Positions 3,002 to 35,128 of a DNA stretch of 64,000 nt are shown here, piece by piece (within the stretch, counting starts at the first letter, position 1; each line of letters begins with the position of its first letter). The stretch is from a virus. Taxonomy: Duplodnaviria; Caudoviricetes. The position numbers were made by a program, and so were the translations under genes. The notes beneath the pieces are model-generated. The model was given only the letters and a program-made list of their open reading frames with translations. It did no database searches and was not told the DNA's origin. The stretch spans positions 1 to 64,000 of IMG/VR virus record IMGVR_UViG_3300028888_000047. One strand, 5' to 3'.

Positions 3002-3173
3002 GTTCATTTCTCAGCTCTTTCTTTTTATCTTTCCTATTGTATTTACTCTTGTTTTTGAACACACGATTTACAGCAACCCATTTTCCTTGATTGCGTTCCA
3101 ATTCTTCATCACGGCTTATCATTCTCAGAATCTTGTATTGTTCCGTGCTTTTCGTCGGTTTTGACTTTTTCAT
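2880..3173 (-). CDS. Small basic protein, candidate ArfA/BrfA-like ribosome-rescue factor
   Basis: KNKSKYNRK motif; intrinsic terminator inside the ORF before the stop. Confidence 0.45.
   Translation of the reverse strand: MKKSKPTKSTEQYKILRMISRDEELERNQGKWVAVNRVFKNKSKYNRKDKKKELRNELSSFLLFQILRIKAYGLINVQCLNQNSILLVEHHSLNVSC
2989..3026. terminator. Bidirectional intrinsic terminator
   Basis: GAGCTGAG-7nt-CTCAGCTC stem flanked by an A tract and a T tract. Confidence 0.8.
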
Positions 3174-3909
3174 TTTTTATCCTCCTCAATTTGTTTTTAT
3201 CATTTAGAATAAACGCAGTTCTACTATCAATACAAGCAAAATCTTTCATAGAAACTATTGACCCATGCTTCAACCTTGAATGACCAAATATTTGAAACAC
3301 ATTATCAACGCCAAGCCCTCCTTGTGAAATAAATTCTCTTAAATCGCACCACACAGGACTACCAGTTTTTTCGCCAAACCATGTTCTCTCTCTGCCTATT
3401 GCGCAAAGTTTACCAACACCTTTCGCTGTCTCTTCAAGATTATTTATTGTCTCTTCTATATTATCATCAAATGTTACATCATGATTTTCTAACCAAAATT
3501 TAGTTATTCCTGCGTGAGTAAATATTATTCTTTTACCATTATTTTCAATACAATAACACGTCTGAAACAATTTGTAATTATCACCATTGAATAGTTCTGT
3601 TAAATGATTATGATGTAATTTATCATATCTGGTTGACCTTGCATAATCATCAAATTGTTTATTACGATAGTGGTAATCGTGATTGCCAAGTAATAAAACT
3701 ATTTTATCTGGATTTTGCTTTTTTAATTCAATAATCTCAATAAAATTGTTTAACGTTTGTTCCCACTCTATTGGCTCTGTGGTTTCATCATTATATGGGT
3801 CGCAATAATCGCCTAGAAATACTATTTTATCAACTTTATTAAAATATTTCTCTGATGGTGCTTTCCAAAATATGCGGCCATGTATGTCTGGAATTACTAA
3901 TATTTTCAT
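3109..3909 (-). CDS. Calcineurin-like metallophosphoesterase
   Basis: DIHG, GDYxD, GNHD, HAG and GHS motifs. Confidence 0.9.
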   Translation of the reverse strand: MKILVIPDIHGRIFWKAPSEKYFNKVDKIVFLGDYCDPYNDETTEPIEWEQTLNNFIEIIELKKQNPDKIVLLLGNHDYHYRNKQFDDYARSTRYDKLHHNHLTELFNGDNYKLFQTCYCIENNGKRIIFTHAGITKFWLENHDVTFDDNIEETINNLEETAKGVGKLCAIGRERTWFGEKTGSPVWCDLREFISQGGLGVDNVFQIFGHSRLKHGSIVSMKDFACIDSRTAFILNDKNKLRRIKNEKVKTDEKHGTIQDSENDKP

Positions 3910-9123: not shown

Positions 9124-10401
9124 TTAAGCAAATCCATAATATTTTTTCCTTATTTCAACCAATAAATCATTTACAAGATTGACATCAATCTCATCAGGAA
9201 TTTTAGAATTGGCAATTGCCTCATTGAGTTCGTTTTCCTCTTTGCTCACCAATTCCATAATTTCATCATATTCAAATTTATGATGCCTAATATCCATGAT
9301 AAGGTCTCTGTCACCGGCAATCCTTCTGTCAAGAATAATACCATCACCTTTTGCAATTTCCTTACCCATACGCATAAGTCTAACACAATGGTACATATTC
9401 TTTGAGTCGTAATTCTTATTCAAATTACTTTCATACCTTCTAGGATTTCTCTCTTTCTCCCAATCCTTATATTCCTTGTATAATCTACAATGAGCCTTAA
9501 ATCCACTCTCATTGTATGTCATCCAACAAAGTGGCTTTTCTCCCTTAGAAACAGAAGAGCCTCGCATATCAGTAGAGTTTTCAAGACACATTCCACGATA
9601 ATGCTTTACCTCCTTGTTATCATCGAACCACTTGTTAAAAGTCTCCCAGTTGGTTAATTCATACTTGAATACAATAAAGTGAGACAAACGTCCAAGTTCA
9701 TCGCCACTAACAGTCTCACTTGAGTACCCATTAAACAGCATTTCAGCAGTAATACCCTTAGCCTCGAAATGAGCACCCCAGTCATAATATACACCATATA
9801 CATCATGCATATTAGGAATATGAACAAGCCCACAGAAATCCTTTTCAAGTCCACGATTCCACAGCCAATCCTTTATCTTAGTGCTACCCTGGTTATAGAA
9901 AGTGTATGCAAAATCAAACGGAGTCAGCCTTTCATAAATAGGGTTAACAATTTTCTTATTTAATCCCCTAGCCTTTTTAATCTGTTCAATAGCATATTGA
10001 ATGAAAGGTCTGAAACACGCTTTTGTTACGAACTTATCTCTATTTGCAAATAAACCATCAAGACACTTATGAGGCTTAATAATCATCATGTCTTCAGGAA
10101 CAAATAAAGACTCAAGCACATTTGCATTCGATGACAATAACATACTCATGTACTTTCCAACTTCGTAAATCACATTGTCTGCCTTATCATCACCGATTTG
10201 TGACGAATAAAGGTCTATTACCCCTTTGTATCTATCACGGAATTGCTTATCGAACCCTAACCCAAACATTTCATCTGGCGTGGCAATGAATAAACCCTTA
10301 GTATCTACATCAGAGCCTTCTTCATTACAATGGTATAATGTACTGCCAGCGACATACTGATACAGTAGTCTATTTTCGCTTTTGATATTTTCTATTGTCA
10401 T
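9124..10401 (-). CDS. Pol-beta superfamily nucleotidyltransferase (RlaP/YcgL-like)
   Basis: GSTLY...SDVDTKG motif; C-terminal KNMYHCVRL. Confidence 0.8.
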   Translation of the reverse strand: MTIENIKSENRLLYQYVAGSTLYHCNEEGSDVDTKGLFIATPDEMFGLGFDKQFRDRYKGVIDLYSSQIGDDKADNVIYEVGKYMSMLLSSNANVLESLFVPEDMMIIKPHKCLDGLFANRDKFVTKACFRPFIQYAIEQIKKARGLNKKIVNPIYERLTPFDFAYTFYNQGSTKIKDWLWNRGLEKDFCGLVHIPNMHDVYGVYYDWGAHFEAKGITAEMLFNGYSSETVSGDELGRLSHFIVFKYELTNWETFNKWFDDNKEVKHYRGMCLENSTDMRGSSVSKGEKPLCWMTYNESGFKAHCRLYKEYKDWEKERNPRRYESNLNKNYDSKNMYHCVRLMRMGKEIAKGDGIILDRRIAGDRDLIMDIRHHKFEYDEIMELVSKEENELNEAIANSKIPDEIDVNLVNDLLVEIRKKYYGFA

Positions 10402-11800: not shown

Positions 11801-12625
11801 TTAAAAGAACTCATCTAACCCATTTTCCTCACAAAACCCTTCCAAATCAGCATATGATTTAATGCAAACGTCCTTAATTTCAAAGCCATGTTCACCTTGG
11901 ACTATTAATGTTCCTCCCTTTTCAAAATTGGATAAATCATTCCAATTTATCTTGAATTTTTCCATTAACATATCTTGAACCTCAGAAGTGTTCTTATTTT
12001 GTAACTCCTTGTGGGAAAAATGAGCCTGTCCTAAAGAATTAATACTATTCCTGTTGCAATCCTTAATTCTCCATAATACACAATTCAATACTTCTTCCAT
12101 AGGTATATTAAAACACCTAGCATCAAACTCTGCTCCATTTTTTAATCCTCTTTCATAAGCATTAACAACCTTCTTAACATCATCAATAAGATATTCATAC
12201 TTCTTCTTATTTGGAAGGAAATCATCATAATATCTTTTAATTAATCCGGCTGCTTTCTCAGCAAATATCTTATTAAACAACTTGGTTGCCTTAGATGCAG
12301 CAACAGAACATAACTTCTGAACGCCATAATCATACCAAGCCTGACTATCCAATTCCTTGTAGTCAACCAATACAAGAGTTATCTCATCAGACTGCGTATA
12401 TCCCAATACAACTCCCTGTATCTCCCTACATAAACCCAATGTAACCTCTTGCATTGTTTCCATCAATCTCTTATCAAATGGCTTCACAAAACCACGTGTA
12501 AAAGTGTGAAATGCAACTCCATCCAATCTAATAATAACAGGAGTTCTCCTTGTTAAATAAGTCTTAGAACGATTTTCATAATTAAATTTCATTCTATCGC
12601 CCAAAATATCTTTTCTATTAGCCAT
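11801..12625 (-). CDS. tRNA(His) guanylyltransferase Thg1-like 3'-5' polymerase
   Basis: RLDGVAFHTFT, KPFD, YTQSDEI and FDAR motifs. Confidence 0.92.
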   Translation of the reverse strand: MANRKDILGDRMKFNYENRSKTYLTRRTPVIIRLDGVAFHTFTRGFVKPFDKRLMETMQEVTLGLCREIQGVVLGYTQSDEITLVLVDYKELDSQAWYDYGVQKLCSVAASKATKLFNKIFAEKAAGLIKRYYDDFLPNKKKYEYLIDDVKKVVNAYERGLKNGAEFDARCFNIPMEEVLNCVLWRIKDCNRNSINSLGQAHFSHKELQNKNTSEVQDMLMEKFKINWNDLSNFEKGGTLIVQGEHGFEIKDVCIKSYADLEGFCEENGLDEFF

Positions 12626-33999: not shown

Positions 34000-34308
34000 A
34001 TGAGTAAGGAAACAATTAAAATGAATCAAATCCGTATAACGCGGATAGGTCTTAAAGAAGTGCTCAATATGGCTGAGCAAGTGTCAAATTCGCATCGTCA
34101 CACCATTCGAGAGAATTGGAATAAGGAGGATGACAAGGATTGCCGTAAGGCGTTGTATAAGGCTCATAGAGGGCTTGCAAAGAGTCGCGCCATCGTTCGT
34201 GAATGCCAAGCTCAATTGCGTGCCACAAAACGCGAAATAAGAAGGCTTAATTACCTACACGATTTCCGCTTAAATGCCATCGCTGAGCATAGAAGCATTT
34301 TTGAATAA
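34000..34308 (+). CDS. Basic coiled-coil hypothetical protein
   Basis: 102-aa ORF. Confidence 0.7.
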   Translation: MSKETIKMNQIRITRIGLKEVLNMAEQVSNSHRHTIRENWNKEDDKDCRKALYKAHRGLAKSRAIVRECQAQLRATKREIRRLNYLHDFRLNAIAEHRSIFE

Positions 34309-34450
34309 AGTGTTAAAGAAATGTTAAAAATTGGATTTCATTTCTTTATCCAATTTTTTTCTTGTATATTTGCAATGTTGAAAGACAAAAAGATAACGAA
34401 TTAAGTCGCCAAGCGTCTGACCGCGTAAGTCTATATGCTTTCAACATCAT

Positions 34451-34529
34451 CGCTGAGAAGCTGAATATTGGCAAAAGCGCAAGGTGGTAAAACATCTTGA
34501 AACAATAGGTTCAAATCCTATCACAGCGG
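34451..34529 (+). ncRNA. tRNA-like RNA 1 (extended anticodon arm, TGGTAAA tip)
   Basis: CGCTGAG/CACAGCG acceptor, GCT/AGC D stem, ATAGG-TTCAAAT-CCTAT T arm. Confidence 0.6.
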
Positions 34530-34535
34530 CTTATT

Positions 34536-34638
34536 TGTGCTTTACCAAAGAAACGGAGGTAACTCTAGGACAAATGGGGCTTATGGTAAATAAGCTGATT
34601 CTACGGAATCTTCACAGGTTCGAATCCTGTAGGCACAA
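34536..34638 (+). ncRNA. tRNA-like RNA 2 (Tyr-GTA-like, expanded D loop, G33)
   Basis: TGTGCTT/AGGCACA; GCTTA-TGGTAAA-TAAGC; GATTC-TACG-GAATC variable arm; ACAGG/CCTGT T stem. Confidence 0.8.
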
Positions 34639-34644
34639 CTTATT

Positions 34645-34747
34645 TAGAGGATACCAAAGAAGTTGACGCAAGTCTAGGACAAATGGACCTCATGGTAAAT
34701 GAGGTGATTCTACGGAATCTTCAAGGGTTCGAATCCCTTTCCTCTAA
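34645..34747 (+). ncRNA. tRNA-like RNA 3 (paralogue of RNA 2)
   Basis: TAGAGGA/TCCTCTA; CCTCA-TGGTAAA-TGAGG; AAGGG/CCCTT; stems covary with RNA 2. Confidence 0.8.
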
Positions 34748-35128
34748 CAAAAAAACCATATTTAAAACCTCCTTTCTTGAGCGGTTGGCAACGGGTTCAC
34801 CCCCAATGCTGACCGCTTTTCTTGTATATATACATTTGCTGGCTTGCACCGTACAACGGTCTTCTGTGGCCTGGTTTTCCCACCACAAAGATAATCATTA
34901 TATTTTAAATTTCAAAATATATTTTGTTAAAAAAAATTAATTAAAAAAGATTTTTATTTTAAACTTTATTAACTAAAATAATTTGGTAGTGTGTAGTAAT
35001 ATTACTATCTTTGATGTGGGATTTCCAGGCATTCTATATACCACGAGCTGTTGTGCATACAAAAAAAAAAGAGTCAATAGCATTAAGCCATCAACCCTTT
35101 TTGAGTATAATATGAAAGAAGATTTTCT

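Follow-up and report, generated by a model that had tools for sequence, protein, structure and literature searches.

A family of tRNA-Tyr-like RNAs with G at position 33 in huge phages: possible decoys in a conflict over tRNA-Tyr

We analysed a window of 64,000 nucleotides (nt), the first 64 kb of a 317,464-bp phage record of IMG/VR (IMGVR_UViG_3300028888_000047, hereafter G000; about 95% complete, 32% G+C), in which an array of three tRNA-like RNAs had been predicted from the sequence alone at positions 34376 to 34747. The locus appears to be laid out as one transcription unit, consisting of a promoter, a leader, three tRNA-shaped RNAs, a trailer and a terminator. The second and third of these RNAs (units 2 and 3) belong to a family of Tyr-type cloverleaves found in related phages, and the first (unit 1) belongs to a second family. 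The features of the locus are given below, with the scores of units 2 and 3 against R1, a covariance model built from these same two units.

34310..34329, plus strand: doublet of direct (G/A)TGTTAAA copies, just past the stop of the open reading frame (ORF) 34000-34308; from sequence
34330..34361, plus strand: hairpin and U-run; the fold of 34325-34362 has 11 pairs followed by UUUUUUU (z -3.8)
34359..34374, plus strand: promoter-like motif TTCTTGTATATTTGCA, containing TATATTTG at 34365-34372
34376..34450, plus strand: leader, in which GTTGAAAGAC...GCTTTCAAC close a hairpin with a 9-bp stem (34376-34384 / 34438-34446)
34451..34529, plus strand: unit 1, a 79-nt, class-I-sized tRNA-like RNA without anticodon; from the fold
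34530..34535, plus strand: spacer CTTATT, 3' trailer of unit 1 and 5' leader of unit 2
34536..34638, plus strand: unit 2, a putative 103-nt tRNA-Tyr mimic; 126.6 bits against R1
34639..34644, plus strand: spacer CTTATT between units 2 and 3; from sequence
34645..34747, plus strand: unit 3, a putative 103-nt tRNA-Tyr mimic; 127.4 bits against R1
34748..34778, plus strand: trailer, predicted to be single-stranded, with ACCUCCUUUCU at 34767-34777
34779..34824, plus strand: intrinsic-terminator-like hairpin, 12+3 pairs followed by UUUUCUU; fold -23.1 kcal/mol, z -3.7

The doublet is a conserved element ahead of the array promoter: repeats of the GTGTTAAA type are also found upstream of the array in most related contigs, and the (G/A)TGTTAAA doublet pattern occurs nine times in the G000 genome. 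The hairpin that follows it has a counterpart at the same place in related contigs and is probably the terminator of the upstream gene. At 34365, where the original prediction had placed a promoter, lies TATATTTG, which fits the Bacteroidota -7 promoter element TAnnTTTG; the core of the motif, TTGTATATTTGYA, occurs 30 times in the genome and is kept upstream of nearly every related array. The predicted leader stem was also recovered, with nine perfect pairs in a fold of -20.5 kcal/mol (z -4.0) that encloses a conserved UUAAGUCGCCAAGCGUCUGA segment. This hairpin is an optional module, present in many related arrays, while others retain GTTGAAAAACGATAAG only. There are indeed three units, separated each time by exactly CTTATT, and CCA is not encoded in any of them. 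The terminator-like hairpin has a counterpart in relatives as well; a simple terminator scan called none at the array end, where the hairpin loop is longer than the scan allows, and the next copy of the promoter motif begins at 34819.

The order of these elements is conserved in relatives, namely a doublet of the GTGTTAAA type, the terminator of the upstream gene, the promoter, a leader GTTGAAA(A/G)ACGATAAG with the optional hairpin module, an optional RNA of the unit-1 type, one to four Tyr-type units, a trailer ending in AACCATATTTAATACCTCCTTTCTT and the terminator hairpin. Spacers of the kinds CTTATT, CTATT and CTCATT connect the units with one another and, in relatives, with tRNA-Met genes of the ordinary type. 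Three contigs have a lone Tyr-type unit placed after such a tRNA-Met gene, across a spacer of this kind, with further tRNAs downstream. Because the units sit among real tRNA genes with shared spacers, they are presumably matured together with tRNA precursors.

Each of units 2 and 3 folds into a cloverleaf of five arms: the acceptor stem has 7 bp, the D stem has 3 bp and a 27-nt loop, the 5-bp anticodon stem closes the loop string UGGUAAA (position 33 being G), the 5-bp variable arm is capped by UACG, and the T arm is canonical. The D loop contains a GNRA-capped hairpin, GAG-GUAA-CUC at 34556-34565 in unit 2 and GAC-GCAA-GUC at 34665-34674 in unit 3, and the sequence GGUAA lies at 34585-34589 and 34694-34698, respectively. 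The G at position 33 and the long D loop with its hairpin had both been read from the sequence before, and the fold shows them again. A gapless alignment of the two units shows 27 differences over 103 positions. Of these, 22 are accounted for by 11 compensatory double changes, spread across the acceptor, anticodon, T and D-hairpin helices, and no pair is broken, in agreement with the covariation claimed by the original prediction. Such a degree of compensation was equalled in 1 of 500 shuffles, and slid controls gave only 1-3 compensated pairs.

Model R1 revealed three tandem copies in a 401-kb relative (G001), which was found through its neighbouring GP88-like gene, and one metagenome scan with the conserved D-loop motif yielded 34 contigs, mostly with two to four tandem copies and a period of about 107 nt. 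A covariance-model check across phage DNA, as had been suggested, gave 81 strong matches, 65 of them distinct (from the 34 metagenome contigs and the 401-kb relative). The family was later described by a second model, R2. Other searches were less productive. An initial D-loop pattern gave only chance matches in coding sequence, and among the 29 loci returned by a looser one, the 401-kb relative alone was genuine. In IMG/VR, exact-pattern scanning retrieved nothing for either the anticodon/variable-arm string or AGGACAAATGG..TGGTAAA, and a blastn search with the locus matched none of 50,697 phage records.

Among the 65 distinct members, 99.4% of the paired cells form standard pairs and 21 of the 28 pairs have changed on both sides, values that none of 500 shuffles reached; slid partners pair in only 36-52% of cells. 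This covariation proves the cloverleaf fold of the family. Invariant or nearly so are U1-A72, A73, U8, A9, the D stem C10-C11-A12 / U23-G24-G25, A13-A14-G15, G18-G19, A21, G26, a CUUC ending in C48 and the T loop UUCGAAU, and these conserved nucleotides are the full set that builds the L-shape and its elbow. The consensus thus has what defines a tRNA cloverleaf (7-bp acceptor, 5-bp T stem, T loop UUCRANY and U8/A14/R15/G18-G19/A21/Y48). Moreover, A73 and a long variable arm, as in class-II tRNA-Tyr, are present in all members, and the variable arm has in each of them a covarying 5-bp stem, mostly with a UNCG-type cap. The G1-C72 pair and the 9-12-nt D loop of bacterial tRNA-Tyr are, on the other hand, missing, U1-A72 being invariant and the D loop longer (26-37 nt across the family, hairpin included). 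The D-loop insert, of 13-24 nt, lies between position 17 and G18, the site of natural D-loop length variation, and its hairpin is capped by GCAA in 57 members, GUAA in three, GAAA in two and GUGA in two.

G33 is present in 65 of 65 members, and the anticodon-loop strings are UGGUAAA (37), CGGUAAG (14), UGGUAAG (10), UGGUUAA (2), CGGUAAA (1) and UGGUGAA (1). Positions 32 and 38 can form a standard pair in all members except one (UA 40, CG 14, UG 10, other 1). The UGGUAAA string of the original prediction is therefore present, but it is probably not a loop of seven: if 32:38 acts as a sixth pair of the stem, what remains is a GGURA pentaloop. The triplet at 34-36 is GUA in 62 members; GUG (once) and GUU (twice) occur on the same Tyr-type body, beside GUA units in the arrays.

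A few units outside this pattern were also seen. At L119:5749-5851, L120:1157-1257 and in L124, the T loop is AGCGUAG or ACCGUAG instead of UUCGAAU, and two of these units also have G18 replaced by A (UAAGAC). The joint changes hint at covariation across the contact between D loop and T loop at the elbow.

One correction to the original prediction concerns unit 1, which represents a second, anticodon-less family. Unit 1 has no variable arm, a discriminator G, a 3-bp D stem, the T loop UUCAAAU and, standing in for the anticodon arm, a 7-bp stem with a 6-nt loop; its acceptor stem carries a conserved A-purine mismatch at 6:67. We found 16 distinct homologues of 75-86 nt, for which RNAalifold gives 16 pairs, 10 of them with compensatory changes. 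In these relatives the middle arm is either a stem with a GNRA cap or an insert that branches, and the UGGUAAA string of unit 1 is not kept.

As the original prediction expected, tRNA scanners miss the units. ARAGORN calls no gene at 34376-34747, although it calls three ordinary tRNAs elsewhere in the window, and the Rfam tRNA model (RF00005) matches none of the three units even at E<=10. The Lys(CTT) and Met(CAT) calls that ARAGORN makes in its intron mode are forced, part of the D region being treated as an intron. Identity with transfer-messenger RNA (tmRNA) was also considered and rejected, given that against RF00023 the units give only 30-nt T-arm matches of 5-14 bits, and a real tmRNA of G000 lies at 156892-157262. 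The family is not in Rfam 15, and no description of it was found in the full-text literature searched, which covers few subscription journals.

The family descends from the class-II tRNA-Tyr of these phages and of Bacteroidaceae-type hosts, in keeping with the earlier reading of the units as mimics derived from class-II Tyr(GUA). The best matches of R2 outside the family are canonical tRNA-Tyr(GUA) genes of related phages. One of these genomes, G001, has in addition to its array a canonical tRNA-Tyr of 81 nt with the loop CUGUAAA, U1-A72 and A73 (52 bits against the Rfam tRNA model), and another, G015, has three canonical tRNA-Tyr copies. The tRNA-Tyr of a sheep-rumen Bacteroidaceae metagenome-assembled genome (MAG) is likewise among the best matches outside the family, with which it has in common the D stem CCA/UGG, AAAUGGG, CUUC, A73 and the T loop. 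In G012, a 371-kb relative (L164:1351-1583), there is an otherwise ordinary 83-nt tRNA of the Tyr type that has G1-C72 and a D loop of normal size, yet its anticodon loop reads UGGUAAA, with G33; by its sequence it appears intermediate between tRNA-Tyr and the family. Next to it lies a 146-nt tRNA-like RNA with a 63-nt insert in the variable arm. Taken together, these comparisons indicate that the units are tRNA-Tyr paralogues that gained G33 and an elbow hairpin and in which the variable arm became longer.

In a sister clade (G002, G004, G005 and G007), the anticodon arm as a whole is a hairpin of 9 bp whose 4-nt loop contains no anticodon. The acceptor, variable arm and T arm are retained there, as is the D region together with the GNRA hairpin. 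Here the elbow is altered on both sides, with UAGAC in the D loop and UGCAAAU in the T loop. In G002 (241300-242500, minus strand; L154), each of the anticodon-less units is preceded by a CUUGUGGUGG...ACCACC hairpin, and the units are about 300 nt apart with conserved sequence between them.

U33 is near-universal in tRNA. We infer that the family does not decode, because G33 replaces U33 in every copy and the 32:38 pairing shrinks the loop, because GUG and GUU units share the Tyr body and the sister clade lacks an anticodon loop altogether, and because G001 also retains a canonical tRNA-Tyr.

The genomes that carry the family have other peculiarities related to tRNA. G000 encodes a full-length tyrosyl-tRNA synthetase (TyrRS; TIGR00234, 376 bits; tyrS at 182959-184245), located 150 kb from the array. 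TyrRS is also found in G001 and G002, the other complete genomes with the family, and both TyrRS and the family are missing from five further complete relatives. G000, G001 and G002 lack the cores of 10-11 other aminoacyl-tRNA synthetases, TyrRS being the only synthetase found. Additionally, G000 encodes a CCA-adding enzyme and a set of tRNA-repair genes (RtcB, two Rnl2-type ligases, RlaP, a Thg1-like enzyme and phosphoesterases) that amounts to a heavy investment in tRNA repair. Directly upstream of tyrS lies a gene for a DUF2828/DUF7788 protein resembling Ro60/TROVE, and two permuted RNAs resembling YrlA occur elsewhere in the genome. The features concerned are:

3109-3909, minus strand: metallophosphoesterase, in the window
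9124-10401, minus strand: RlaP nucleotidyltransferase, in the window
11801-12625, minus strand: Thg1-like 3'-5' polymerase, in the window
G000 182959-186178, minus strand: DUF2828+DUF7788 Ro60/TROVE-like gene (534 aa) and tyrS, outside the window
G000 157680-157806 and 171865-171986, minus strand: permuted YrlA-like RNAs with T arm, closed acceptor helix and D arm, closed by a GGAAACUMACAGCAA...GUUUCC stem, outside the window

An AlphaFold model of the DUF2828/DUF7788 protein (mean predicted local distance difference test, pLDDT, 77) has Ro60/TROVE proteins as its top 12 PDB matches, with E from 3e-6. The adjacency of its gene to tyrS is kept in G001 and in a 372-kb ENA contig (55% identity), and in G002 the two genes are 1.3 kb apart; all three family-bearing complete genomes have the Ro60-like gene, whereas G018 has one without the family. 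A cellular homologue in Bacteroidaceae is 58% identical. The YrlA-like RNAs are closed by a GGRAACUMACAGCAA...GUUYCC stem, a motif with five copies in the phage tRNA cluster, and one of them scores 38 bits against Rfam YrlA (gathering threshold, GA, 69). The same stem motif, here as GGGGACUCACAGCAA...GUCCCC, is located immediately upstream of a cellular DUF2828 gene, that of the sheep-rumen Bacteroidaceae MAG (L170:5880-5960), which suggests an undescribed Y-RNA family of this Ro60-like clade in Bacteroidaceae. The Ro60-like protein thus probably has RNA partners other than the array units. Neither the family model nor Rfam gave a match beside the Ro60-like genes in the examined stretch of the ENA phage contig or in the Bacteroidaceae MAG.

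G000 has 36 tRNA calls besides the tmRNA, including a tRNA(CUA). Despite this tRNA, there is no sign of TAG or TGA recoding, since standard-code ORFs cover about 74% of G000 and reading TAG as sense adds little. Several calls combine a long variable arm with an unexpected anticodon (Met CAU, 90 nt; Trp CCA, 86 nt; Gln CUG, 89 nt; Cys GCA, 97 nt). The only tRNA(GUA) called by ARAGORN or Rfam, at 147454-147541 on the minus strand, is 70 nt long, class-I sized, and lies within a GGGAAC...GUUCCC closing stem of the Y type; it may be another Y-like RNA and not a working tRNA-Tyr.

The trailer is the remaining conserved part of the locus. Its AACCATATTTAATACCTCCTTTCTT sequence is kept after the last unit in most arrays, and ACCUCCUUUCU occurs only once in the 317-kb genome and is identical to the 3' tail of Bacteroidota 16S rRNA, the anti-Shine-Dalgarno sequence. 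Shine-Dalgarno (SD) sequences are present in only about 2% of the phage ORFs. The segment 34748-34824 looks like a small RNA, with 31 unpaired nt followed by the terminator hairpin, and the trailer might base-pair with those few mRNAs that have an SD (rpsU-type), or it might act as a mimic of the 16S tail. A minus-strand start site (AGGAGG and ATG) in the trailer was discarded, as its distance and frame into the unit vary between contigs and SD is almost unused. The promoter type, the near absence of SD and the 58% identity of the cellular Ro60-like homologue point to a Bacteroidales host. A rumen or sheep-gut habitat is indirectly indicated by a sheep-gut RNA run and the sheep-rumen MAG. From the promoter, the terminator and the conservation of the locus we also infer that the array is expressed and processed.

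The family probably acts in a phage-host conflict over tRNA-Tyr. We count for this the lone TyrRS, the repair genes, the three tRNA-Tyr copies of G015 and the G33 variant of G012. Judging from their conserved nucleotides, the units would retain all that RNase P, RNase Z, the CCA-adding enzyme, TyrRS and a tRNA-Tyr-specific nuclease would read, and they carry four fixed alterations: G33, a pairable 32:38, the GNRA-capped D-loop hairpin at the elbow and U1-A72. It is known that Septu and retron-Eco7 cut tRNA-Tyr in the variable arm, that T5 and T6 escape through more, or resistant, tRNA-Tyr, and that over-expression of the phage tRNA-Tyr partly protects the host tRNA-Tyr (PMC11555353, PMC13096335). 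The explanation that we favour, tentatively and at somewhat less than an even chance, is that the units are abundant decoys or competitors for a host nuclease directed at tRNA-Tyr.

If so, RNase P and RNase Z or exonucleases would cut the precursor at the 6-nt spacers, and the phage CCA-adding enzyme would append CCA to the released units. The mature units would not decode on the ribosome but would accumulate as tRNA-Tyr mimics occupying a tRNA-Tyr-specific protein. The likeliest target would be a host defence nuclease that cuts tRNA-Tyr (Septu/PtuAB-like), so that the pool of real tRNA-Tyr would be spared, and tyrosine decoding would be sustained by the phage TyrRS, the tRNA-repair enzymes and, in relatives, the canonical tRNA-Tyr. 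Tandem copies with differing acceptor stems would allow a higher dose without long perfect repeats.

Several points weigh against non-decoding decoys. In older work, U33 substitutions weaken decoding without abolishing it. GUA-A37-A38 is strictly kept in 62 of the 65 units, which also fits a charged or even a decoding RNA. No canonical class-II tRNA-Tyr was found in G000, where the only GUA tRNA is the 70-nt one, with its poor acceptor stem, and for that reason the units could be the real substrates of the phage TyrRS. The joint occurrence of TyrRS and the family may come from one inheritance event, as G000, G001 and G002 are one clade. Finally, one sheep-gut metatranscriptome contains 81% of the sequence words of the locus, with contigs 100% identical to the phage, but its depth is flat over genes and array, so that DNA carry-over is possible and the data are uninformative on transcription; in a second run of the same sample the array was not covered.

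We rank nuclease decoys above a role linked to TyrRS, followed by a resistant decoding tRNA, a Y-RNA-like partner and processing punctuation, pseudogenes being excluded. The units may be charged by TyrRS outside translation and then donate tyrosine in a non-ribosomal reaction, or they may regulate or sponge the enzyme, which we regard as rather unlikely. Their identity marks would be A73, U1-A72, G34-U35 and the long variable arm, with the D-loop hairpin perhaps as a private mark. This would account for a lone synthetase restricted to the three family-bearing complete genomes and lacking a canonical class-II tRNA-Tyr in G000, and also for U1-A72 being common to the units and the canonical tRNA-Tyr of G001 while absent from the tRNA-Tyr of TyrRS-less relatives and of the Bacteroidaceae MAG. 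The known identity elements of bacterial TyrRS are conserved in the units. The rules for bacteria have been reviewed (PMC9976931). However, the sister clade, which lacks G34-U35, still has TyrRS, and the distance between array and tyrS in G000 also counts against this role.

Unlikely, although less so than the explanations that follow, is a working tRNA-Tyr that reads UAY during infection and resists nucleases through its altered anticodon loop, variable arm and D loop. Such a tRNA would explain why GUA with A37-A38 is so widely kept, why the otherwise ordinary tRNA of G012 has the same UGGUAAA loop and why G000 has no other class-II Tyr tRNA, and it has precedents in protective anticodon-loop changes (PMC10264068) and in the distinctive variable loop of the T5 tRNA-Tyr (PMC13096335). 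It is at odds with an invariant G33 and a pairable 32:38, with GUG and GUU on a Tyr-type body, which would miscode, with a clade wholly devoid of an anticodon loop, and with an extra hairpin at the elbow, a presumed site of ribosome contact. Of the functions that the original prediction had listed, a nuclease-resistant decoding tRNA is the one that we favour least, given the sister clade, the GUG/GUU units and the canonical tRNA-Tyr of a relative.

The Ro60-like gene raises the question of whether the units are Y-RNA-like partners of its product, perhaps bridging it to TyrRS. The resemblance of its model to Ro60/TROVE, its position beside tyrS (or, in G002, close to it) and its presence in all three complete genomes with the family agree with such a role. 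Nevertheless, the permuted YrlA-like RNAs are better candidates within the phage, the corresponding stem motif accompanies the cellular gene in the Bacteroidaceae MAG, the array units have the topology of tRNA and not of Y RNA, no unit was found near the examined Ro60-like genes and G018 has such a gene without the family, all of which makes this explanation improbable. No more can be said for cloverleaves that act as processing punctuation, from which RNase P and RNase Z would release a functional leader hairpin and an anti-SD-like trailer. Leader and trailer are both conserved, and the trailer has a small-RNA layout, in which the terminator hairpin comes after a single-stranded seed; but punctuation would not require an invariant GGURA loop, an equally invariant D-loop sequence with a GNRA hairpin, U1-A72 and A73 over 65 variants, the leader hairpin is optional, and single units occur in ordinary tRNA clusters with neither leader nor trailer, so that this too is quite improbable. 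Decaying tRNA pseudogenes or a chance resemblance, to which the silence of the scanners might point, can be dismissed in view of the 22 compensatory differences out of 27 between units 2 and 3, the 99.4% pairing of the family and its 21 covarying pairs.

Cleavage of tRNA is an emerging major arm of bacterial immunity, with tRNA-Tyr as a documented target (Septu, retron-Eco7), and the phage answers known so far are extra or resistant decoding tRNAs and repair enzymes. Look-alikes of tRNA-Tyr without a working anticodon loop would be a different answer, either as decoys or as private synthetase substrates. It is possible, although we would not yet wager on it, that they make up a dedicated phage class of "decoy tRNA", recognisable by the elbow GNRA hairpin and by an anticodon arm closed to a GGURA loop or a tetraloop, produced in tandem, maturing as tRNAs do and trapping a tRNA-Tyr immune nuclease, or a private orthogonal set of TyrRS substrates; this would be a tRNA-shaped RNA evolved for being bound and not for translating. 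The family also links three puzzling features of its clade, namely the lone TyrRS, the Ro60-like protein and the heavy tRNA-repair capacity. The 65 natural variants are a comparative data set showing which nucleotides matter, and the elbow hairpin, the GGURA loop and U1-A72 are concrete biochemical handles. Standard scanners leave this class of tRNA-derived genes unannotated in huge phages.

Among known systems, the tRNA-Tyr of T5 (against retron-Eco7 PtuAB) and T6 (against Septu) resembles the array in having a phage Tyr-type body and a strong phage promoter. An anti-defence tRNA would be expected to be phage-encoded, highly expressed and of the species cleaved by the defence; the array has a Tyr-type body and a strong consensus phage promoter, and the RNA depth is uninformative on its expression. 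T6 escapers amplify the tRNA-Tyr segment, and the array likewise has tandem copies (PMC11555353, PMC13096335), but these are old, diverged paralogues, unlike the recent amplifications in T6. The T5 tRNA-Tyr is reported to be resistant through its variable loop, and the variable arm is also altered in the array units. Nevertheless, the tRNA-Tyr of T5 and T6 are ordinary decoding tRNAs that scanners find, whereas the array units have G33, a 32:38 pair, a D-loop hairpin and an anticodon-less sister clade.

The tRNAs of mycobacteriophages are similar to the units in that their anticodon loops depart from the host consensus at nuclease-read positions, and these mutations are predicted to evade anticodon nucleases (PMC10264068). 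Unlike the units, they retain U33, in a loop of 7 nt, and a decoding role is proposed for them; U33 itself is not mentioned in that work (PMC10264068).

The YrlA and other bacterial Y RNAs (RF02553) are non-decoding, as the units appear to be, and share with them a tRNA-like elbow made of T arm, D arm and an acceptor-like helix, and YrlA occurs in genomes with Ro60 and RtcB, both encoded by G000. YrlA is, however, circularly permuted and ends in a Ro-binding stem, with the acceptor helix closed, whereas in the array units the acceptor ends are free and carry a discriminator, and both a variable arm and an arm of the anticodon type are present, which places them outside the Y RNAs. The Rfam YrlA model does not match the array and matches a separate element of G000.

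Canonical class-II tRNA-Tyr (RF00005) shares with the units the cloverleaf, the tertiary-contact nucleotides, A73, G34-U35-A36-A37-A38 and a long variable arm, and the 3-bp D stem CCA/UGG is as in Bacteroidaceae tRNA-Tyr. The units differ from it by G33 for U33, a pairable 32:38, the 13-24-nt D insert, U1-A72 for G1-C72 and a 5-bp variable stem mostly capped by UNCG, and they give no score with RF00005. Species 1 and 2 of T4 and the tRNA-Other of Bacillus cereus are tRNA-like or tRNA-cluster RNAs that are processed with tRNAs and have no normal decoding role, but they lack a Tyr-type body, a D-loop hairpin and a GGURA loop, and we know of no relation in sequence or structure between them and the units. 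Both tRNA-derived non-coding RNA and phage tRNA counter-defence are known kinds; what is new in this family is its architecture and the apparent loss of decoding.

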